Assembly: GCA_027262695.1 (NCBI GenBank)
Contig: GCA_027262695.1_4722.1
From: a phage
Direction: 5' to 3' (one strand)
Length of the DNA: 64,000 nt
The translations under genes and the position numbers were made by a program. The notes below the pieces were generated by a model. It was given only the letters and a program-made list of their open reading frames with translations, was not told where the DNA came from and searched no databases. Shown piece by piece: positions 7,488 to 49,948 of this stretch. Every line of letters begins with the position of its first letter. The first letter of the stretch is position 1.

Positions 7488-7958
7488 TTATAACACGCCC
7501 CAAGCCATATTGGGTACAGGCTCGTTACGTTCGATGTAATACATCAAGCGTTCTTTAAGTTTGGTTAACGCCTCAGCAACGATGTTCTCCATGGCAATCA
7601 CCTTTCCAATGTAATCCATGGTATCCTGCCACGTAAACCATTCGACGGTATTGACGATGTAAAGGGTTTCATCGTCGTCGGTCATGACCTTGGCATTTTC
7701 ACGATGATCGCGGGTCGCGTATAACGGTGTTTTTAGATTCGCTCTGATACGTACCCAGAGCTTCTCCAGGAAATCGCTCGGTTGACTATCTGTCGTGATG
7801 ATAAGTTCACTCCGTACTGAACGCTCTCCACGCTTTTCAATAACAAGTAAACCATCGTAAGTGATGTTCATCAAGTTACGAAGGTCATCATTGCTATTCC
7901 AGTCTTTTACAACAGCAGGAAGTTGGCTATTGTACTCTTCAGGTAATCTCTTAAGCAT
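7488..7958 (-). CDS. hypothetical protein
   Basis: 156 aa ORF, 8-nt overlap with upstream gene. Confidence 0.5.
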   Translation of the reverse strand: MLKRLPEEYNSQLPAVVKDWNSNDDLRNLMNITYDGLLVIEKRGERSVRSELIITTDSQPSDFLEKLWVRIRANLKTPLYATRDHRENAKVMTDDDETLYIVNTVEWFTWQDTMDYIGKVIAMENIVAEALTKLKERLMYYIERNEPVPNMAWGVL

Positions 7959-8403
7959 CGGTTTCTGCTCCTATATCACGTTTGAGTTCGGCGACCAGTT
8001 TGTCGTAATGGTCTTTTATCACATTCGCCATAACGAATTGCGCTTTTCTCACTAGCTGCTCATTGGCATCACTGAATGTAAAATACTCTCGCACTTCAAC
8101 CGGATGTGATACGCCACCGATATCGTAGGCTTTATTCGATGTGCGTTGAGCGATCACTGGGAGCGGTTTCGCGGCGTTCAGCGCAGTACAGATTTCCGTA
8201 ACGAGTTCTTGAATTTGGCTTTTCCCTTCGATGATAACGCTGCAACGATAAACATCCACCTCGTTAAGTTGTTCAACAACATCCGCCTTGATTTTGAATT
8301 GACCTACAAGCGCGCTTACTAAAGTGCGGTGCCAATTGTTCACCACTCCAACCAGCAATGGATGATTCTCAAGATCTCTTCTGTTCATTTCTGAGCTCCT
8401 CAA
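7951..8403 (-). CDS. hypothetical protein
   Basis: 150 aa ORF; GAGGAG RBS upstream. Confidence 0.5.
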   Translation of the reverse strand: MRSSEMNRRDLENHPLLVGVVNNWHRTLVSALVGQFKIKADVVEQLNEVDVYRCSVIIEGKSQIQELVTEICTALNAAKPLPVIAQRTSNKAYDIGGVSHPVEVREYFTFSDANEQLVRKAQFVMANVIKDHYDKLVAELKRDIGAETDA

Positions 8404-8425
8404 TCGCTCTATAACAAACTTTTAG

Positions 8426-8450
8426 AGGAAGGGAAACATATTCCCTTCCT
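8426..8450. terminator. hairpin AGGAAGGGAA-acata-TTCCCTTCCT
   Basis: 10-bp perfect inverted repeat between same-strand genes. Confidence 0.45.
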
Positions 8451-8467
8451 TGAGTTAGTTTATTGCG

Positions 8468-8743
8468 TTATACGTCTTTTCTGTGCGCGTAGAACGCCTT
8501 CGTTCCGTTGTTGATCGCCTCAACCACATCCGGGGTTAACACAACGGCGATATCGCTTCGAGATGACGGTGCGTAATACCCTTCACCGTTCTCGGTAATC
8601 AGGCGATAACGGACTAAGCCTATGTTCGGTTCAACGCGTACCACTCTTTCGAGTTTGTACTTGATGATCTTCGTCAGGCCGATAGTCTCTGATGCGTAGA
8701 TGGCTTTATAAACTTTGTTCTTTGCTGTCGTTTTCATCAACAT
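8468..8743 (-). CDS. hypothetical small protein downstream of paralog A
   Basis: Start chosen at ATG 8743 (AAGGA 10 nt upstream); ORF track extends to 8812, overlapping the upstream gene. Confidence 0.4.
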   Translation of the reverse strand: MLMKTTAKNKVYKAIYASETIGLTKIIKYKLERVVRVEPNIGLVRYRLITENGEGYYAPSSRSDIAVVLTPDVVEAINNGTKAFYAHRKDV

Positions 8744-9599
8744 GGTTTCTGTTTTCCTTGGTTTGTTGTGGTCCCAGGTCGGAGATATCCCAACGGATAT
8801 AACCAACATCACGGATTCGCTCGGCTGTTTCTTCGGATTGTGGATTACGACTGATAACCGGTAGCCATTCCCCTTCTCGGGTTATCTTAACTTCGGTGAT
8901 CTGTAAGCTCATGTTCCAACGAACGTCATAAACCAGCGCGTAACCAAGAGGATGAACAAGCCCATCTTGGTTATACATCTTCAAAAGACCTCTTACATCT
9001 TCGCTACGAAGTGATTTCATGGCTGGACGTACGCGTTGAAGTCTCTTTGTGATATCGTATCCCAACTTAATATCCTTCCAACCCGTCATGACGTAAGGAA
9101 CAACGTTGCGGCGACGGAGTTGATGGTTGTGAGTGGTTTCTTCGGCGGTAAGATGTACCCAACCGAGATCGCTGTACGCCACGAACCGCGCTCCTTCTCC
9201 ATCGAGCACTGTGTGCTCATCTAACGCTGCTGCAACACCATGGCCTGCGTAATACGACGGAAGAACGTTCAGCATTTTAATACGGCTTTCTTGACCGGTA
9301 TGGTCAGGGTCGATATGCGCGTAGTAATAATTACGGCTTACCGGACGACCTTCCGCCATACATCCACGGAAGACAGGGTCCTGCATTCCAAGCGGATGGT
9401 AATACGCGAGCTGTTGCTCGTCACCTTCCCCGATGACCAACAAACGATCTTCACGACTTGGTGTGCTAGGATCTTTCACCGTGATGTAGGTAACAATCAC
9501 TTTCAGATTGTCTAAAATGTCCTGTGGAAGTTTCTCTAAATCCCGTGCGTCGTAAATACGATTAACAACAACGTTTGCAATGTGTTTTGGTAAGCTCAT
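8706..9599 (-). CDS. hypothetical protein, tandem paralog A (YYHPxGMQ / DLGWxHL / GYxRWDISDL family)
   Basis: 297 aa; shares YYHPLGMQ, SDLGWVHL, RRNVVPYVM, HPLGY, GYIRWDISDL with the two neighbouring ORFs. Confidence 0.6.
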   Translation of the reverse strand: MSLPKHIANVVVNRIYDARDLEKLPQDILDNLKVIVTYITVKDPSTPSREDRLLVIGEGDEQQLAYYHPLGMQDPVFRGCMAEGRPVSRNYYYAHIDPDHTGQESRIKMLNVLPSYYAGHGVAAALDEHTVLDGEGARFVAYSDLGWVHLTAEETTHNHQLRRRNVVPYVMTGWKDIKLGYDITKRLQRVRPAMKSLRSEDVRGLLKMYNQDGLVHPLGYALVYDVRWNMSLQITEVKITREGEWLPVISRNPQSEETAERIRDVGYIRWDISDLGPQQTKENRNHVDENDSKEQSL

Positions 9600-9679
9600 T
9601 TTAGATCTCTCTTTGTTATCGGTAAAATAAATAACGGCATAAATGGGACATAACTGTCCCCGTGTTAAATATCAACTGT

Positions 9680-10522
9680 TCACGCTTTCAAGTCTGAAAT
9701 ATCCCAACGTACGTAACCTGTACGCTCAATGTCGTCAACCAGTCGCTCGGTTTGATTTTCAACGCCAACGACGGGCACCCAATTTAAACGCCAGCGTCCA
9801 CCGACATTAACCTCAACACGCTGCAGATCTTCATTCCAACAAACCCCATTCGGTCTCAAAAAGCCCATCGGATGGATGTAGTCCTCATCGTAATCTTTCA
9901 ATAGCGCGAGAATATCGCTTCGGCTATAAGTCTTCACGCTTGCTAGATGTACGCTTTGTAGCTTATCACGCAGACCCCAACCGTACTCACTATCACGCCA
10001 TTCAGGCATGACAACCGGCAGTACATTCCGATGACGGATGTATTTTGCCGCTTCAGCAATATCAGCTGGGAGATGTATCCAACCTAAATCGCTGTTAGCG
10101 ACAAAATCAGGACTATCCATTTCATGGATGTAACGATCGTAAAGCGTAGCAGCGAGTCCTTCAGCAAGCACGTTTGTTGGAAGGAGGCAGTTGGCGCTTA
10201 TCTTGAAATCGAATACATCGGCATCAGGATCCACGTATGCGTAAAACCCGCGCGCAAAAGCACCGCCATGCTCTTTGAAGTAGTATTGGAACACAGCGTT
10301 TTGCATTCCGATGGGGTGGTAGTAAGCCAACACACGTTGTTCGCCGTCCGTGATTTCAATGAGCCGATCTTTCGGCTTCGGCCAGGTGATCTTCTCAACA
10401 TCGCAAACGCTGACGATCTTTCGTAGATTCACCTTGATATGTTCCGGGAGATGCCCGATTTCATTTTCATGATAAACACGGGTGATGACGTGATGAATAA
10501 CAGATTGTGGTTTAGCTGTCAT
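9680..10522 (-). CDS. hypothetical protein, tandem paralog B
   Basis: 280 aa; YYHPIGMQ, SDLGWIHL, HRNVLPVVM, HPMGF, GYVRWDISDL. Confidence 0.6.
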   Translation of the reverse strand: MTAKPQSVIHHVITRVYHENEIGHLPEHIKVNLRKIVSVCDVEKITWPKPKDRLIEITDGEQRVLAYYHPIGMQNAVFQYYFKEHGGAFARGFYAYVDPDADVFDFKISANCLLPTNVLAEGLAATLYDRYIHEMDSPDFVANSDLGWIHLPADIAEAAKYIRHRNVLPVVMPEWRDSEYGWGLRDKLQSVHLASVKTYSRSDILALLKDYDEDYIHPMGFLRPNGVCWNEDLQRVEVNVGGRWRLNWVPVVGVENQTERLVDDIERTGYVRWDISDLKA

Positions 10523-10554
10523 TTGACGTCTCCTTTTCGTTTGTTGGTGATGGT

Positions 10555-10854
10555 TTAGGGTTTAGGTTCCGTTTTGTATTGTGCGAGTAATGCGTTGATC
10601 TGCTCCCGTTGTTCTTTTAAGCATGTGGGAAGCTGGTCTTCCCGTACCGTTCCGATTTCCAACGTGATGTACCAACGTTGTTCGGAAGCCTGCCATTGAA
10701 AACTGCTCTGTAACCGAAGGATGTTGGGATCGCGTACCTTGCTTGCGCTGTAGCGATCGAACCAATCCAGATAAGCGGCTTTTCCTTCCTCGTCGGCAAC
10801 GTAACGCTGCACGCTGTTCTTGCCTTTGTTCTCGTATCCCGTGATGCGGATCAT
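10555..10854 (-). CDS. hypothetical small protein coupled to paralog C
   Basis: Start at ATG 10854 forms ATGA overlap with stop of 10851-11627. Confidence 0.4.
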   Translation of the reverse strand: MIRITGYENKGKNSVQRYVADEEGKAAYLDWFDRYSASKVRDPNILRLQSSFQWQASEQRWYITLEIGTVREDQLPTCLKEQREQINALLAQYKTEPKP

Positions 10855-11627
10855 GCGAACGTTTCTCCTGTAACGTGTTGCGGATAGCGTAGCATGGTAA
10901 CATCCCATTGTACGAATCCCTGCTGTTGGAGTTGTTGCATAACCGCTTCAACGTCTTGTCCTGGATGCGCAACCGGCAACCAACGTGTATCCAGCACCTT
11001 CGCTTCAAGGCGGGCTTTGCGCTTGTTCCAACGTACCTCGCTGATCCATGCGAAGCCAAGCGGATGCACCACCTGCGGGTAATGCACGCGCAGCAGGTTC
11101 TTCATCCGGCGAAGGATTGCAAGCCTGGCGTCAAGCGCGTATGGTTTCACCTGGTTAAGCTTGCGGGTGTAATACGTTCCCACGGTTTGGTTCGCCCAAC
11201 CAGGAAGCGCATGATGGGACCCAGCCTGCAATGTATTGTCCCCGTTCGTCTTCAACCAACCGTATTGCCCTGCCGCACGTCCTTTCTCATGTTCAACTTG
11301 TACCAGCTGATCGATGAACGAAGCATCAACGATACCGTGATCCACCTCATCCAACGCATAGCGCACCACCAACCCGCTCGCGCTCATCCGTGCGGGATGC
11401 TGGCTCCGATGCGCGTACCAAACCCTATTAACATGCAGCCGAGAAGGATACGTGTGTGCGCCACGCCAAAACACTTTTCCGAGAACACGTTCTCCACAGT
11501 ACACCATCACCCCTTTGTGATCGATTAGGTAATCCAACACCTTCATGCATTCCGCTTTGATGCTATCCGGTAATGCTAAGTATTCCTCTTCGGTGAACAC
11601 GGTATCAAAAATGATTTCATCGCTCAT
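10851..11627 (-). CDS. hypothetical protein, tandem paralog C (more divergent)
   Basis: 258 aa; HPLGFAWISEVRWN and GFVQWDVTML correspond to motifs in A and B. Confidence 0.55.
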   Translation of the reverse strand: MSDEIIFDTVFTEEEYLALPDSIKAECMKVLDYLIDHKGVMVYCGERVLGKVFWRGAHTYPSRLHVNRVWYAHRSQHPARMSASGLVVRYALDEVDHGIVDASFIDQLVQVEHEKGRAAGQYGWLKTNGDNTLQAGSHHALPGWANQTVGTYYTRKLNQVKPYALDARLAILRRMKNLLRVHYPQVVHPLGFAWISEVRWNKRKARLEAKVLDTRWLPVAHPGQDVEAVMQQLQQQGFVQWDVTMLRYPQHVTGETFA

Positions 11628-11677
11628 GGATAAAGTTCCTTGTTTTCACGTTGTTTGATTAACGTATTGATTTCTGA

Positions 11678-11712
11678 TGATGATAACATCGATATGTTTG
11701 CTGTTATCAAGA
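11678..11712 (-). promoter_or_regulatory. candidate sigma70-like promoter for the minus-strand early gene array
   Basis: On minus strand TTGATA, about 17 nt spacer, then GTTATCAT about 50 nt upstream of the 11627 start; by eye only. Confidence 0.25.
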
Positions 11713-11879
11713 AGGTAATATAGCCGTGAAAGGATTTGTATTACAGAAAGGATATTTGTTTTTAAGAAGGGACGATGGTTATCAGGAAGGAGGTTATCGG
11801 TAGGTGTAGGAGAGGGGATTTCAAGGAAGGTTTAAGAGGATAGTTATGTTGTTTAGTTGAGAGTTTGCTAAAATAGCTT

Positions 11880-12070
11880 TATCGTTATCTTAGTTTATCT
11901 GTGTATTCGTTAGGTATCTTGATTTATCTTCTTAATGATCTTTTCAAAAGTGTTATCATGGTTATCTTAGGTTATGTCTTAATTGTTTTATCTTGGTATG
12001 TTTAAGTTGTTTTAAGTTATCTGTTTATCTATCTTGTTATCTTGTTTAAGTTGTTAATGGCTTATCTTCA
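11880..12070. repeat. iteron-like cluster: at least 9 copies of TTATCT plus two copies of GTTTAAGTTGTT
   Basis: Direct repeats read from sequence inside a roughly 950-bp ORF-poor AT-rich island (11628-12584). Confidence 0.55.
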
Positions 12071-12130: not shown

Positions 12131-12536
12131 TCATCTGTGCATTACACTACGTTACATGCTTATCAACGTTTTGTGAAGACAAAACGTTCAACTCTAAAAA
12201 ACCATTTGTGATACTCTTCTTCACGTTGTTCATCAGAGTATCTCGTCTATCCTCACTGCGTTCGCATACGACATCACCGTTATACGCTAACGCTACGCTT
12301 ATAGCTTATAACTCTAAGGATAAAAACATAAACTCGCTTCGCTCGTTTAGTTTTTCTTTTTCTTAGAGTTATCATGTTGCTCGTCTCTAAAGGACTTCGC
12401 TCCTCCCCCGTCCCCCGAAGGGGCCGAGGTCGTGGAAATTTTACTTTCCAAATACATTTACAACGTCTGTAAACTTTTACCGACACATACCTAATCTTAT
12501 ATTTAAAATTAGAAAAAGAGAAAATACGAACATAAC

Positions 12537-12566
12537 CCTCCTCCAACCCGGAAGGGAAGGAGGAGG
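12537..12566. terminator. hairpin CCTCCTCC-AA-CCC-GGAA-GGG-AA-GGAGGAGG (canonical family member)
   Basis: Read directly; immediately downstream of stop of 12585-13478. Confidence 0.55.
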
Positions 12567-12584: not shown

Positions 12585-13478
12585 TTAATCGGAAGTGTTA
12601 TAACCGAATACTGCTTTACCGTAGGTGTGAGTACCATCACTGAGTGACAATACTAATACGTGGTTATACGCATCGTTAACACCCTTGTCGGTAGAATCGG
12701 TGGTAACACCGTTGTAGACAAAGGTAGCTGATTGCAGATTGGTTTTCAGTTCATTGATGATATCATCACTTACACCAGTCTGCTCTTTAATCAGAGTAGT
12801 CAGGTTACCTGCTAAGCTTGCGTCGAGATTTACTTCGTTGCCAGTAATAGCTTGTAAACCTGAAGCGTAAGTACTGAAGTCTAACGGATAGGTTAACAGA
12901 CGTGCTGACGTTTTGGTACCATTGCCTTCATCAACGTAGGTTAAGTTACCCAGGTTGGTAACCTTGATAATGTTAGACAGATCCAGCGTTGTGTTATAAA
13001 CTTTAACTTGAACAGAACCATACCAAGCCAACGAATCTTCTTTGGCTTCCAGGGTAACGGTTTGGATACCTGACTGATCAAAGGTAACGGGATTAGATAA
13101 CGTTTCAGCTTTGATGTCTTTTGTTTTATCCAGGAACTTCTCGCCGGAAGGCGTAACCATACCGTAGCGTTGAGCTACGAGGTCGACCACGTCACCGATG
13201 GTGGTGTTTGCTTCAACACTAACGCGCACCGCGATCTTCTGGAACCATTTAGCCAGATCCAGACGATGATAGGTGACATCGCGGGTATTGAAGTACGGTG
13301 TACCATCACCCGGACTGAGTGTTAATGTTGCTGCACTATCAGAATCGCTTTTGGATTTAAGAACGTATTTGAGATCAGTGTATTTGAAACTGGCTCCCGT
13401 ATCGGCGTTAAGCTGGTTGATCTCATCAACGATAAGTTGCCACGGTGTTTTCAAAGTAAGTGATACTCGACTTGACAT
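12585..13478 (-). CDS. putative tail/baseplate-associated structural protein, member of 4-copy paralog family
   Basis: 297 aa; shares Y-x-R-[IL]-D-L and LAW-[YT]-GSV motifs with 24541-25446, 26363-27214, 27225-28160. Confidence 0.55.
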   Translation of the reverse strand: MSSRVSLTLKTPWQLIVDEINQLNADTGASFKYTDLKYVLKSKSDSDSAATLTLSPGDGTPYFNTRDVTYHRLDLAKWFQKIAVRVSVEANTTIGDVVDLVAQRYGMVTPSGEKFLDKTKDIKAETLSNPVTFDQSGIQTVTLEAKEDSLAWYGSVQVKVYNTTLDLSNIIKVTNLGNLTYVDEGNGTKTSARLLTYPLDFSTYASGLQAITGNEVNLDASLAGNLTTLIKEQTGVSDDIINELKTNLQSATFVYNGVTTDSTDKGVNDAYNHVLVLSLSDGTHTYGKAVFGYNTSD

Positions 13479-46335: not shown

Positions 46336-47169
46336 TTACTTAGCTTTCGGATTATACGGACTAACATGTTGCTGCATTCGTTGGATTGTTTCGTAGTACG
46401 GGTTATAATGAGTGAACATATTGTTGTATGGATGGTAGCCGTAAAGCGCATTTTGCCTTGCCGGTGAGAAACCTTTTTGAGAAGGACGATTTGAATTTAC
46501 TGCGAGCACGTAGTAAACCAAATTTTGATGGTCGAATGTTCCTTCGTTTTTGAAGGTGTCAGCATAGGCGCTTACCGCAGGAGCAAGTCTATCACCATCG
46601 GTTGTAATGATCGTACCATCCGGGTAAACTTCTCGAACGATACACCATGTTCCGATGAGAACATCTTCGGGTGTCTTATTACTGTATCCGACTGTAACGG
46701 TAAGGTAAGTATCGAATCCTCCTGAGCACTGCGGATGTCGATAAATTGGGCCAGTCGTTTCTGCTTTATCGGTTACGGTTTTTTCGTAAGGACACTTCTT
46801 GATTGCTTTGATGTAAATATCGGGAATCTCTAATACCGCCTTATCAGGATGAATTCTAAAATGATTCTTGAGTAAGCCCAAAAGGTTGGTTGCTACCACG
46901 TCGTGAGGTAGTACCCAATAACTGGTAGGGGAGTCATCGCCGTCTCTCTTGGAGAAGATGACTGCCTTGTTATCGTCGTCTGGTAGACTGAAGAAAACGA
47001 TTGACTCAATAGGCATAGCCAGCTCACCACAACAGGGGTCAGCGGATAACACCCAATTGTATTTGTTGTCCGTTTCGTATAAATGTTCTGTTCTGTCGAT
47101 ACTACGATCCTTCAATTGGATGTAGCGTTCACGTTGTTTCTTGGTTAATTTACGGTAGATAGTGGTCAT
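46336..47169 (-). CDS. hypothetical protein, paralog of 47255-48028
   Basis: YRHPQCSGGFDTYLTVTVGY...VREVYPDGTIITTDG vs YVHPECHTTYDRYLTITGGV...IREIYPDGRITTF. Confidence 0.55.
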   Translation of the reverse strand: MTTIYRKLTKKQRERYIQLKDRSIDRTEHLYETDNKYNWVLSADPCCGELAMPIESIVFFSLPDDDNKAVIFSKRDGDDSPTSYWVLPHDVVATNLLGLLKNHFRIHPDKAVLEIPDIYIKAIKKCPYEKTVTDKAETTGPIYRHPQCSGGFDTYLTVTVGYSNKTPEDVLIGTWCIVREVYPDGTIITTDGDRLAPAVSAYADTFKNEGTFDHQNLVYYVLAVNSNRPSQKGFSPARQNALYGYHPYNNMFTHYNPYYETIQRMQQHVSPYNPKAK

Positions 47170-47254
47170 GTTAAGCTCCTTGATTACGGTAAGGATGATT
47201 TCGGTTTTGTGATGATGGTAGGACCACTTTGTTTAGGATCCTACCAGTACGGGA

Positions 47255-48028
47255 TTATTCATGATCAGTGTAGAAATGGTGAGGATAGCCGGAGTACGAT
47301 CCTGCGTTACCGGCTATGGATTCTTTCTGGGAATCGACGACGAGCGCGTAGAACTGTCGGGAATTTGTTAACGTTGAGAAATAAGAGGAAAGGACTTTTT
47401 CGTTCAACGCATCGCACGGTAGACAGGTACGCCCACAGAACGTCGTAATACGGCCATCCGGATAGATCTCACGGATCATACGCCATTCACCGATATCAAC
47501 CGGCGATGGCGCTGCTACACCACCTGTTATCGTTAAATAACGATCATACGTGGTATGACATTCTGGATGTACGTAAATTGGCTTATTGGCCTCAACTTCT
47601 TCAGGAGCATAGCGTCGACCGAGAAGTTCAATAACCTCCAGATAGATTGTAGGCAGATCGCAAAGAACCCCTTCCTCTTTACGTTTCTTCGTGATTCGAG
47701 GACGAACCTCATTGATAACGTAGGCGAGTTCATTCAGCGCTTCTTGCGCTGGTAGCACGAATAAACGGTCCGGTTTGTCGGACAAGTCTTCATTTACGTA
47801 AACGTAACAAACATCGTCTTTAGGCGCGTAGAAGAAGCGAGAGACCTTAAAGGTTTCCGTAGTACGATAACCGAGACGCGTTTGGTCCTGCACCAGAGAA
47901 AATATCCAGCGACGTCCTTCGTCCTGTTCAATGATATCATTGAACATCTTTGTTTGATCAGGAAGTTGATATTCTTCCTGTAATTTAGCAAGTGCTTCAT
48001 TATCCAGTTTGGTGTAAACATCAGTCAT
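47255..48028 (-). CDS. hypothetical protein, paralog of 46336-47169
   Basis: 257 aa; motifs as above. Confidence 0.55.
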   Translation of the reverse strand: MTDVYTKLDNEALAKLQEEYQLPDQTKMFNDIIEQDEGRRWIFSLVQDQTRLGYRTTETFKVSRFFYAPKDDVCYVYVNEDLSDKPDRLFVLPAQEALNELAYVINEVRPRITKKRKEEGVLCDLPTIYLEVIELLGRRYAPEEVEANKPIYVHPECHTTYDRYLTITGGVAAPSPVDIGEWRMIREIYPDGRITTFCGRTCLPCDALNEKVLSSYFSTLTNSRQFYALVVDSQKESIAGNAGSYSGYPHHFYTDHE

Positions 48029-48055: not shown

Positions 48056-48460
48056 CTAGTCTATCTTAAGCCAGATTGATGGTAAATGGAAATAGACACC
48101 GTCGTCTATTTGTTTTTGTGTTAACGGGGTTGGAAGTTTAGTGATGATGTTGTCGATCGATTCCTCAATGTCACTTGTTAGAACGTCGATGTGGTAATAG
48201 CGAGCGATGCGTCCGTTACGTTCTAGCCAAAACAGACGAACGAAATCACTATTTTTATTAATCGCATTCATAAACACGATTTGATGAAGCAGGATCATTC
48301 TTGACGAGGGGTAATCGTCAGGACGCGGAGTCATCACCAGTTCCCAACGTTTCCGTCGCACGCCTTTTTTGAATTGACTCGTTACATTTGAACCACTTTT
48401 ACCTAAGTTTATAACAAATTGCTTTAGACGATACGGTGTATTTCTGTAAATATCGGTCAT
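48056..48460 (-). CDS. hypothetical protein, possibly truncated relative of the 46336/47255 family
   Basis: 134 aa; C-terminal DDGVYFHLPSIWLKID resembles family N-terminal region. Confidence 0.4.
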   Translation of the reverse strand: MTDIYRNTPYRLKQFVINLGKSGSNVTSQFKKGVRRKRWELVMTPRPDDYPSSRMILLHQIVFMNAINKNSDFVRLFWLERNGRIARYYHIDVLTSDIEESIDNIITKLPTPLTQKQIDDGVYFHLPSIWLKID

Positions 48461-48544
48461 TGATTATAGCTCCAGGTTATTATCACTAAGGTAATATAGT
48501 CGTGAAATAAACTGGAGTAATAGAAATAATAAGACGGCATAAGA

Positions 48545-48580: not shown

Positions 48581-49948
48581 TTAAACGGTTGGACGAACGG
48601 TGTTGTCTTTTTCCGGTGCAAGCCAGAGTGTGACGGTACCGTGGCAGGTCCATTGGGGTTCACGTACAGAAGAACCCGCCATCGTAACAGCGCAATCGGT
48701 ACGCATAACAACGCCGTAAGCTTCGCAAAGGTTATTGTCTTGCATCCAAACAACTTTAGCAGGCATGCCAGGATACAGTAAATCCATGTTGGCATGTTCC
48801 CATACCAACTGCATCGTTCGACCGCGTAACCCAGCAGTATTACTTAATTCCCGCCAACGGTTATCCGTTACCCGGCCCATCCCTTTTGCTACCTTCACGT
48901 TATCACTACGTTCTTCCGTCACATACTCGCTTACGTTCACGGTACGACTGATGATCGTATCACCGCCCTTCGATAACGTCATTCCCTGGCTCATCTGACT
49001 CGCTGAAACAAAGCGTCCACCCGCATTACCTAACAATGAAGCTGCGTTGCTGATATCGCTGACCGACGCACCTCGTGTACACGCGATCTCCACGTATTTG
49101 TCACGATTGATCCAGGTATTTTCCATGCCGGGAAACATATCGGCCGGATAATTGTAAAAAATCGCCGTACGTCGACCGTCGGAGAAACGGGTTTCGTCAT
49201 ACAGAGGGTAGATATACAAATACGGTGATTGGTAATAGCAACCAACGTCCGCTGAATAAATACCGACCTGGTTCTGGATCTTATCAACAAGATCCATCGC
49301 GTTGGTACCATGAGGAAGAATCAATAACTTGAACAAATCATTGTTATTCGGTGCGACAATATCAACACCCTGCATTTTGAAGCCGGTATCCGCTTCAACA
49401 GCAGAAAGGATTTTACTGAATTCGAGTCGCAGTACATCCAGAACTTTCGATCCAGTATAGTTCTCACCGGTTTCTGACTGCATGAAGCTTTCAAGAACAG
49501 GATCGAACAACTGGAATTGAAGATCGACCATCTGCTCGTAATCTTTCTTCGCAGAATCGGTTGCAGTACGTTCATCGGTTGCGGACATACGACTGTCTAC
49601 GGTGGTTAAACAAACTGCCCGATAGACATAAGCTTGTGCGGCATCGTCTACGGTTTGGCGTTGTCCACGCATCAGACTGTACGCCTGCACGATGACGCGC
49701 ATTTTAAGTTGTTGCTGGTACGGTAAAATGTATTTTCCGTAACTGCCCGGAGGGAACTTTACAGAGATATAAAGTTCATCTCCTGCGTTACGTTCATAGT
49801 CTCGATACGTGTGGACTTGAGTCACTAAAGGAACAGACACCGTCATTGACGGCGTGATTAATTCCGCGGTGACTTTATACGCAACAGCAACTGCTTCCTG
49901 CGCAAATGTACCGATATACCGTCCTAACGGCGTCTGTTTGTAATCCAT
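48581..49948 (-). CDS. hypothetical structural protein
   Basis: 455 aa; first gene of a tightly coupled minus-strand block. Confidence 0.5.
   Translation of the reverse strand: MDYKQTPLGRYIGTFAQEAVAVAYKVTAELITPSMTVSVPLVTQVHTYRDYERNAGDELYISVKFPPGSYGKYILPYQQQLKMRVIVQAYSLMRGQRQTVDDAAQAYVYRAVCLTTVDSRMSATDERTATDSAKKDYEQMVDLQFQLFDPVLESFMQSETGENYTGSKVLDVLRLEFSKILSAVEADTGFKMQGVDIVAPNNNDLFKLLILPHGTNAMDLVDKIQNQVGIYSADVGCYYQSPYLYIYPLYDETRFSDGRRTAIFYNYPADMFPGMENTWINRDKYVEIACTRGASVSDISNAASLLGNAGGRFVSASQMSQGMTLSKGGDTIISRTVNVSEYVTEERSDNVKVAKGMGRVTDNRWRELSNTAGLRGRTMQLVWEHANMDLLYPGMPAKVVWMQDNNLCEAYGVVMRTDCAVTMAGSSVREPQWTCHGTVTLWLAPEKDNTVRPTV

Follow-up and report, generated by a model that had tools for sequence, protein, structure and literature searches.

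The Goslar gp21 family, a lineage-restricted protein family encoded in an ordered cassette array of Goslar-like chimalliviruses

The stretch of DNA analysed here, 64 kb in length and referred to throughout as the window, belongs to a Goslar-like chimallivirus, i.e., a giant nucleus-forming phage of E. coli. Three large paralogous genes (P1, P2, and P3) and two small open reading frames (sA and sB) lie together on its minus strand, accompanied by a predicted promoter and several intergenic elements (Table 1). A first-pass annotation had described three tandem minus-strand paralogs with associated short ORFs, one of them coupled through an ATGA sequence at 10851-10854. This layout was borne out, as both small ORFs are real, the TGA stop codon of P3 does overlap the ATG of sA at that position, and all three large genes were found to be homologous over their full length. 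A six-frame HMM scan of the window returned exactly these three family members. The start of sB is most likely at 8743, giving the same length as Goslar gp19, and sB overlaps the 3' end of P1 over 38 nt. The last ~20 residues of P1 are a read-through into the sB leader; an earlier TGA stop is retained in the corresponding gene of two related genomes (L002 and L010), yielding a protein of 277 aa. The proteins of the family are soluble and hydrophilic, with a pI of 5.6-8.8 and neither membrane segments nor signal peptides.

Table 1. Features of the gp21-family array in the window, listed in the direction of the minus strand.
Feature	Position	Strand	Remarks
Early (virion-RNAP type) promoter box, TTTCACGGCTATATTACCTTC	11711..11731	-	Predicted; 84 nt ahead of where P3 starts
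P3, subfamily A paralog	10851..11627	-	258 aa; Goslar gp21 ortholog; constant first gene of the array
sA, 99-aa ORF	10555..10854	-	Goslar gp20 ortholog; joined to the end of P3 by the ATGA overlap
Junction leader, AAACCCTAA-CCATCACCAACAAACGAAAAGGAG	10523..10554	-	From junction comparison
P2, subfamily C paralog	9680..10522	-	280 aa; optional cassette, lacking in Goslar
Hairpin GGGGACAgttaTGTCCC, then a T-rich run	9645..9661	-	From junction comparison
P1, subfamily D paralog	8706..9599	-	297 aa; optional cassette
sB, 91-aa ORF	8468..8743	-	Goslar gp19 ortholog; constant last gene of the array
GC-rich hairpin, AAGGAAGGGAAtatgtTTCCCTTCCT	8425..8451		Just after sB; resembles a terminator

The relatedness of the three paralogs was established by BLASTP for P1 and P2 (36% identity over 275 aa, E=3e-58), P1 and P3 (27% over 161 aa, E=1e-13), and P2 and P3 (26% over 115 aa, E=2e-8). 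Profile-profile comparison with hhalign then matched subfamily A (P3-like) to subfamilies B, C, and D (P1/P2-like) with 98.8% probability (E=8.7e-17), and since this match spans 236 columns, the homology is taken to be full length. P1 and P2 are also connected by residual DNA repeats, one of 44 nt and one of 30 nt, at a spacing of ~917 nt. The motifs first reported as common to all three proteins hold in part: YYHPxGMQ, SDLGWxHL, and RRNVxPxVM are confined to P1 and P2, whereas P3 shares with them HPLGF, WLPV, and a degenerate GFVQWDVTML. Subfamilies C and D are ~20% identical to A, and the four subfamilies altogether only ~20% identical to each other. Of the residues invariant across all of them, just two are polar (His in HPxG, Asp in WD), and the rest are W, L, V, P, and G. 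Such a His and Asp could constitute a catalytic pair, which was counted against a non-enzymatic reading of the proteins. By BLASTP, sA and sB are related neither to each other nor to the large paralogs. Kinship with a second tandem pair of orphan genes in the window, at 46336-48028, was rejected (hhalign probability 0.1%).

The family is confined to Goslar-like phages, as the phage restriction check proposed in the first-pass annotation has now made clear. It comprises 25 clusters among 5.8 billion proteins and eight representatives among 1.84 billion in an exhaustive HMMER profile search, which found no relatives outside the family, and Goslar was the sole match among 50,697 phage records. 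In the matching papers of a literature search, gp21 of Goslar was not found as a whole word. Against Pfam, PHROGs, NCBIfam, and PADLOC, none of the five ORFs had a significant match; P1 and P2 had no Pfam match at E up to 1, and P3 produced sub-threshold noise only. The same Pfam scan recognised the neighbouring gene at 12585-13478 as DUF7941 (2e-51), serving as a positive control. No defence-related match arose from PADLOC, Pfam, or NCBIfam, although PADLOC, as a collection of defence rather than anti-defence proteins, says little about the latter. A hit to GTP cyclohydrolase I in the PDB, obtained with a three-sequence profile (E=0.016), was dismissed as chance, having vanished with a 24-sequence profile. 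The earlier remark that the family could be placed in no known fold therefore stands with respect to both family and structure searches; the structure models are of moderate quality, however (pTM 0.50 and 0.70), so that similarity to a known fold may have gone unnoticed. Similarity to virion components, which had been named as the outcome that would speak against a non-structural role, was looked for with these models and not seen.

P1, P2, and P3 all show significant full-length homology to Goslar gp21 (QBO63814 / YP_009820706, annotated as "hypothetical protein"), of which P3 is the ortholog (61% identity over the full length, E=7e-100). Goslar gp20 and gp19 are 95% and 89% identical to sA and sB, respectively. 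The family has the DUF7941 gp22 homologue on one side and the gp20/gp19/gp18 homologues on the other, on the same strand as in Goslar; the two phages also agree in the location between gp22 and gp18, the ATGA overlap, and the upstream promoter box. Goslar carries the A copy alone, whereas the window adds C and D between sA and sB.

Published RNA-seq of Goslar under ChmA knock-down reports log2 fold changes of +0.8 to +1.4 for gp014-021 and of -3 to -7 for gp005-013 and gp022-036. The gp19-21 transcripts thus hold their level when the phage nucleus is depleted while the neighbouring structural genes fall ~30-fold, indicating early, nucleus-independent transcription. As for the particle, LC-MS/MS of Goslar virions (Table S4, 10.64898/2026.04.21.720040) gives ~580 copies of gp22 and ~2140 copies of gp23, and gp19-21 are absent among the proteins listed in that table, which does include trace proteins of ~4 copies. 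The expression and virion data concern A, sA, and sB as they occur in Goslar, a phage without C and D, and for these the earlier proposal of early, non-structural genes is upheld. For the array of the present phage, conservation of the promoter box and synteny lead us to infer the same early, nucleus-independent expression and absence from virions.

That the array sits directly behind a putative early promoter was also proposed from the outset, and a phiKZ-type box is indeed conserved at this position in Goslar, L002, and L003. Within it, TTTCACGGCTATATTAC at 11715-11731(-) fits the TATATTAC-type consensus with an upstream TTTYA element. Expressed as TTTCACGnCTAyATTAC, the box matches the early promoter consensus sequences of phiKZ (TATATTAC), 201phi2-1 (WTTTRARR_BTATATTAC), and EL (WTTTYAAACCTACATTATY) given in PMC7058600 Table 2. 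The window contains just two occurrences of the box, for an expectation of 0.01. In the first 50 kb of Goslar (1-50 kb), there are three matches against 0 expected, located upstream of gp004, gp021, and gp046, and all three head early blocks defined by RNA-seq. No match was obtained for gp037-040, which makes up the fourth early block, with up to three mismatches allowed.

Comparison of 14 related genomes revealed a constant gene order, A-sA-[B]-[C]-[D]-sB, in which P2 occupies slot C and P1 slot D. The arrays hold one to four copies in seven combinations, including one C/D chimera and an allelic replacement of A; B, C, and D are all missing in six of the 14. Their order is fixed, and each subfamily is 60-98% conserved across genomes. 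What was originally taken for a local triplication is hence better described as part of an older array with four ordered slots, subject to differential loss, gain, and recombination. The view of the small ORFs has to be corrected as well, in that sA and sB do not go with individual paralogs but serve as constant flanking genes. sA, found only in Goslar-like contigs and 80-96% conserved, is missing in L004, and in L017 it is 99% identical to that of Goslar next to an A copy only ~43% identical to Goslar gp21.

The junctions between cassettes are homologous. The leader in front of P2 recurs behind the B and C copies of other genomes; judging from the junction alignments, it is likely to be where cassettes are gained and lost by recombination. 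Every D copy (those of the window, L002, L003, L006, and L008) is preceded by the GGGGACAgttaTGTCCC hairpin, which may act as an attenuator, a terminator, or an RNA-stability element. Rfam and tRNA scans for a conserved intergenic element returned no match.

Between genomes, the paralogs display ortholog identities of 40-93% and dN/dS values of 0.16-0.51, compared with 71-99.7% and 0.01-0.27 for neighbouring genes; the P2 ortholog in L003, for instance, is 74% identical with a dN/dS of 0.16. The corresponding dN/dS ranges are 0.08-0.38 for sA and 0.14-0.36 for sB. The paralogs are under purifying selection yet change several-fold more quickly than their neighbours. A sliding-window Nei-Gojobori analysis for positive selection gave no convincing dN/dS above 1, the single value above it (1.26, residues 1-30 of D) being based on very few changes, and an arms race is accordingly unsupported by dN/dS. 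As dS is also high, the divergence reflects in part old allelic variation.

Given that the Goslar equivalents are early and virion-absent and that copy number varies from one to four between relatives, it is reasonable but unproven to regard the array as a candidate for host manipulation or counter-defence. The best explanation of the whole, to which we would give somewhat less than an even chance, is that the family consists of early soluble binding proteins engaging host factors and extended by optional cassettes. According to this proposal, the proteins would be synthesised in the cytoplasm of the host, minutes into the infection, from mRNA that the virion RNA polymerase makes in the early-infection (EPI) vesicle. 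The paralogs would be soluble and probably non-enzymatic binders, built on a conserved Trp/Leu/Pro/Gly-rich core with variable regions, and would engage host factors, for takeover or counter-defence, in the vulnerable period that precedes nucleus formation. The general function would fall to A, while the optional B, C, and D would widen the range of targets, with homologous recombination at the shared stop-codon/leader junctions and between paralogs serving to gain, lose, and fuse cassettes. A bolder version, possible but rather doubtful, sees in the paralogs modular cytoplasmic effectors of a new fold, deployed by chimalliviruses of enterobacteria from the EPI vesicle. A, B, C, and D would each neutralise a different immune or housekeeping target of the host in the one phase when the phage lacks the shield of its nucleus, and cassette shuffling between co-circulating phages would tune which E. 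coli, Shigella, and Salmonella hosts they can infect.

Such an arrangement has partial parallels. The hyperplastic regions of T-even phages and the early 0.3-0.7 region of T7 are hypervariable early regions of host-takeover and anti-defence genes. The gp21 array has in common with them a place directly behind an early promoter, orphan ORFs of small to medium size, gene content that varies among close relatives, and fast divergence. It differs in consisting of one paralog family in fixed slots, whereas the T-even and T7 regions are mixtures of unrelated genes.

Several other accounts of the family deserve consideration. The proteins might act within the phage programme as early accessory factors, sub-functionalised paralogs that, perhaps through a small OB/PH-like beta-barrel, would for example handle mRNA or DNA on its way out of the EPI vesicle or assist nucleus formation, and this we consider unlikely. 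A novel enzyme family, for example a hydrolase or a modifying enzyme acting early on a host or phage substrate, would accommodate the His and Asp that persist across such divergent subfamilies, as well as the moderately His-rich composition (10-13 His in each protein), and is nevertheless judged improbable. A role in inter-phage competition or superinfection exclusion, with the family diversified against related co-infecting phages, would agree with the early expression, the presence/absence polymorphism, and the shuffling of alleles among co-circulating relatives. The proteins, however, are hydrophilic, are devoid of membrane segments and signal peptides, and bear no likeness to known exclusion proteins, leaving this account decidedly improbable.

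There is also but a slim prospect that the cassettes are selfish or nearly neutral mobile elements, persisting through recombination-prone junctions to little benefit. Their modular behaviour at shared junction sequences and the dispensability of B, C, and D in some genomes would be in keeping with this. Against it, all copies are intact and under the purifying selection described above, the order and conservation of the subfamilies are maintained, and neither homing motifs nor an HNH, GIY-YIG, LAGLIDADG, or other nuclease domain was found.

Lastly, the proteins could be virion or injected structural components like their DUF7941 or PF12699 counterparts, as paralogous families of virion proteins are a known trait of chimalliviruses and the array adjoins the DUF7941 virion genes gp22/gp23, but this is largely refuted and most improbable in view of the early rather than late expression, the absence of Goslar gp19-21 from the virion table, and the lack of any Pfam or structural likeness to virion proteins. 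PF12699 (injected, inner-body type) and DUF7941 (the gp22/gp23 "fibre cloud") are likewise lineage-specific, multi-copy, and of a fold not known. They are nonetheless late and abundant in the virion, whereas the gp21 family is early, undetected in virions, and has no sequence relationship to them, the paralogs giving no Pfam match to either.

Should the family turn out to be no more than a minor accessory, the finding would be quite ordinary, a further orphan family of a jumbo phage. Being early, non-virion, fast-changing, and copy-variable, and with genetic tools for this lineage such as CRISPRi-ART knock-down and GFP localisation already in existence, the array is a concrete candidate for host-takeover or counter-defence functions and one that is easy to test, for which natural variants with one, two, three, or four cassettes offer ready-made comparisons. 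The protein nucleus shields chimalliviruses from DNA-targeting immunity; if the proposed engagement of host factors is true, the array would bear on how these phages are protected or prepared at the EPI-vesicle stage in the first minutes of infection.

The three large genes P1, P2 and P3 and the two small ORFs sA and sB are all present on the minus strand as the first-pass annotation described them. P1, P2 and P3 belong to one paralog family, referred to here by Goslar gp21, the ortholog of P3. P1 and P2 are 36% identical across 275 residues (BLASTP, E=3e-58). Alignment of P3 to P1 and P2 by BLASTP was limited to its C-terminal 115-160 residues (E=1e-13 and 2e-8), and a profile-profile comparison of P3-like with P1/P2-like sequences spanned the full length (236 columns, E=8.7e-17, probability 98.8%). 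The collinear motifs attributed to all three hold only in part: HPxG[YF], WxP and xWDxxxL occur in each, but YYHPxGMQ, SDLGWxHL and RRNVxPxVM are missing from P3. In a six-frame HMM scan, these three were the only members in the 64 kb window.

Features of the array and its surroundings in the window
Feature	Coordinates	Strand	Remarks
ORF downstream of sB	7488-7958	minus	
ORF downstream of sB	7951-8403	minus	
sB	8468-8743	minus	91 aa; start at 8743 set by comparison with Goslar gp19
P1	8706-9599	minus	subfamily D
P2	9680-10522	minus	subfamily C
sA	10555-10854	minus	99 aa
P3	10851-11627	minus	subfamily A
Early box	11711-11731	minus	21 nt
Hypervariable A-rich zone	11863-12046		
Noncoding core	12194-12490		~300 nt
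Terminator-like hairpin	12536-12555	minus	after gp22 homolog
gp22 homolog	12585-13478	minus	
Second orphan pair	46336-47169	minus	277 aa
Second orphan pair	47255-48028	minus	257 aa
ORF in second early-box block	48056-48460	minus	
Second early box	48487-48507	minus	

Each copy in the window and 13 other Goslar-like genomes was assigned by HMM and BLAST to one of four subfamilies, namely A (gp21-like, 249-264 aa), B (284-298 aa), C (280 aa, including P2) and D (277-297 aa, including P1); B, C and D share 30-37% identity with one another and ~20% each with A. The slot order is constant, A-sA-[B]-[C]-[D]-sB, and the content varies: A only (Goslar, L011, L013, L014, L015 and L017), A+D (L002 and L010), A+C (L012), A+C+D (the window), A+B+D (L006 and L008), A+B+C+D (L003), and A+B with a C/D chimera (P0007) lacking sA (L004). 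The window thus fills three of the four slots of an older array, and the local tandem triplication originally proposed has to be abandoned. Among the genomes compared, A alleles are independent of cassette content. L012 carries C and L008 carries B+D, yet the A copy of each matches Goslar gp21 at ~95% identity. L017, whose sA, sB and gp18 are 98-99% identical to their Goslar counterparts, possesses a divergent 249-aa A allele, 92% identical to that of L006, which in turn shows ~43% identity to Goslar gp21; this is an allelic replacement amid Goslar-like flanks.

The last codons of sA with the leader behind them, AAACC[C/T]TAA-CCAnCAnCAACAAnCGAAAAGGA, are found again downstream of B and C, whose copies terminate in ...DLKP*. 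These recurring ends and leaders supply short stretches of homology at which unequal crossover could take place. A conserved hairpin, GGGGACAnnnnTGTCCCC, with TTTTATG behind it, stands ahead of each D copy. In the 297-aa D proteins, the last 20 residues come from reading on into the ribosome-binding site and opening codons of sB; L002 and L010 retain an earlier TGA stop, and their D is 277 aa. In P1, whose 3' end overlaps the 5' end of sB by 38 nt, the C-terminal ~20 residues, QQTKENRNHVDENDSKEQSL (8706-8774), are coded by the sB leader, ribosome-binding site and first codons in another frame, and this tail arose when that stop codon was lost, a case of overprinting by read-through. Small ORFs had been described as coupled to two of the paralogs; both ORFs exist, as does the ATGA overlap of the P3 stop with the sA start, but by the junction structure they belong to the array as a whole, as its constant flanks, and are not partners tied to individual paralogs.

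In Nei-Gojobori estimates, the gp21 family gave dN/dS of 0.16-0.51 at ortholog identities of 40-93%, against 0.01-0.27 and 71-99.7% for the neighbours gp13, gp14, gp15, gp22 and gp24 in the same genome pairs, with sA and sB intermediate. The paralogs are thus real and constrained, and change several-fold faster than their surroundings. The dS of the family is also elevated, which points to old alleles swapped by recombination. Sliding windows showed no convincing dN/dS >1, so diversifying selection is not demonstrated.

The array stands, as suspected, behind an early-type promoter: 84 nt separate P3 from a conserved phiKZ-type box upstream of it, TTTCACGGCTATATTACCTTC, which agrees with the early promoters predicted for phiKZ-like phages (PMC7058600, Table 2) and is kept in Goslar, L002 and L003 amid variable surrounding sequence. 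It occurs only twice in the window against 0.01 expected; Goslar has three hits in its first 50 kb against none expected, upstream of gp004, gp021 and gp046. These genes head three of the four Goslar blocks whose transcripts persist under knock-down of ChmA, the nuclear shell protein (bioRxiv 10.1101/2023.09.20.558163, Supplementary Table 2). In that study, gp019, gp020 and gp021 showed log2 fold changes of +1.0 to +1.4 while flanking gp022-gp036 and gp005-gp013 fell by 3-7 log2 units, and the persistent pattern was interpreted by the authors as early, EPI-vesicle transcription. One Goslar box (49721-49741, minus) falls within the annotated 62-codon gp047 (49584-49772), which casts doubt on the start codon annotated for that ORF, or on the ORF as a whole.

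Between the gp22 homolog and the promoter lies a single-copy noncoding core, 96-100% identical across 10 Goslar-like genomes, exceeding both flanking genes, and extending to ~12047 at lower conservation. It forms a chain of hairpins (RNA folding z -4.0 on the minus strand, -4.8 on the plus strand), has no Rfam or tRNA match, occurs in IMG/VR only in Goslar-like contigs, and may be a new structured RNA or a new DNA element acting in cis. Directly between it and the promoter is a hypervariable zone of degenerate AGATAAC/TTATCT-type short repeats (mean pairwise identity 35-64% among relatives). The early block also varies downstream of sB, where the window, L003, L006 and L008 carry two ORFs of ~145-156 aa at the position of the single Goslar gp18 (135 aa), and L012 a 156-aa ORF only. 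The second early box heads a block of the same design, with tandem orphan paralogs (30% identity, E=5e-23, no Pfam match) where Goslar has only gp47; kinship of this pair with the gp21 family was rejected (probability 0.1%).

Searched against 50,697 phage records, the region 8400-11700 matched solely Escherichia phage vB_EcoM_Goslar (81% identity, 44% query coverage), a nucleus-forming jumbo phage (Chimalliviridae, Goslarvirus); collinearity between the window and that genome runs from the RuvC-like gp10 onwards. There, gp21 (260 aa), gp20 (99 aa) and gp19 (91 aa) are each annotated 'hypothetical protein'. The only entries for the exact P1-P3 proteins are on a 248 kb contig, under the name 'hypothetical protein [Escherichia coli O157]'; isolate assemblies of Salmonella and Shigella contain near-identical copies. 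When 5.8 billion clustered proteins were searched with a profile, 25 clusters came back, all from E. coli, Shigella or metagenomes, several on ~235-250 kb contigs and none with a Pfam domain; exhaustive HMMER against 1.84 billion 50%-identity representatives returned only eight. Goslar was the only tblastn match among all phage records, IMG/VR contained Goslar and one 183 kb relative, and sA and sB are likewise limited to Goslar-like contigs. Pfam, PHROGs, NCBIfam and PADLOC were all blank, in keeping with the initial failure to place the family, which is undescribed beyond those 'hypothetical protein' entries in Goslar and isolate assemblies. Isolate assemblies of E. coli O157, Salmonella enterica (several serovars), Shigella flexneri and Shigella sonnei repeatedly contain a Goslar-like genome as one contig of 235-248 kb, L002, L010, L011 and L012 being examples. 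This points to a carrier state, to pseudolysogeny or to contamination that is frequent, as well as to a host range across the three genera.

A host-takeover or anti-defence role had been proposed from context, to which a virion component would be contrary; for the Goslar ortholog, neither a virion fold nor presence in the virion proteome was found. Table S4 of that proteome (bioRxiv 10.64898/2026.04.21.720040) lists gp022 (~580 copies per virion), gp023 (~2140) and even gp018 (~4), and the gp019-021 accessions are absent. The gene upstream of the array encodes the ortholog of this gp22, a DUF7941 protein (Pfam 2e-51) recently reported to be an abundant, filament-forming virion protein.

The array proteins are soluble (pI 5.6-8.8), with no hydrophobic segments. 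Invariant positions are nearly all Trp, Leu, Val, Pro and Gly, the polar ones being one His and one Asp, a composition less suggestive of an enzyme than of a conserved scaffold whose surfaces vary. Since early timing would also put the proteins in the cytoplasm at a stage when the nucleus has yet to form, we tentatively read them as host-directed binders, with confidence falling somewhat short of even. The selection tests came out negative, which counts against such binders. So does the presence of subfamily A throughout the lineage, which is just as compatible with an early role internal to the phage; that role we regard as unlikely. Enzyme, exclusion, selfish-cassette or structural readings are less probable still.

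The array is a lineage-restricted and cassette-variable set of soluble paralogs behind an early-type promoter, non-virion in Goslar. Hypervariable early accessory regions are well known in phages, and these ordered-slot cassettes add a new one, in a chimallivirus that is amenable to genetics.
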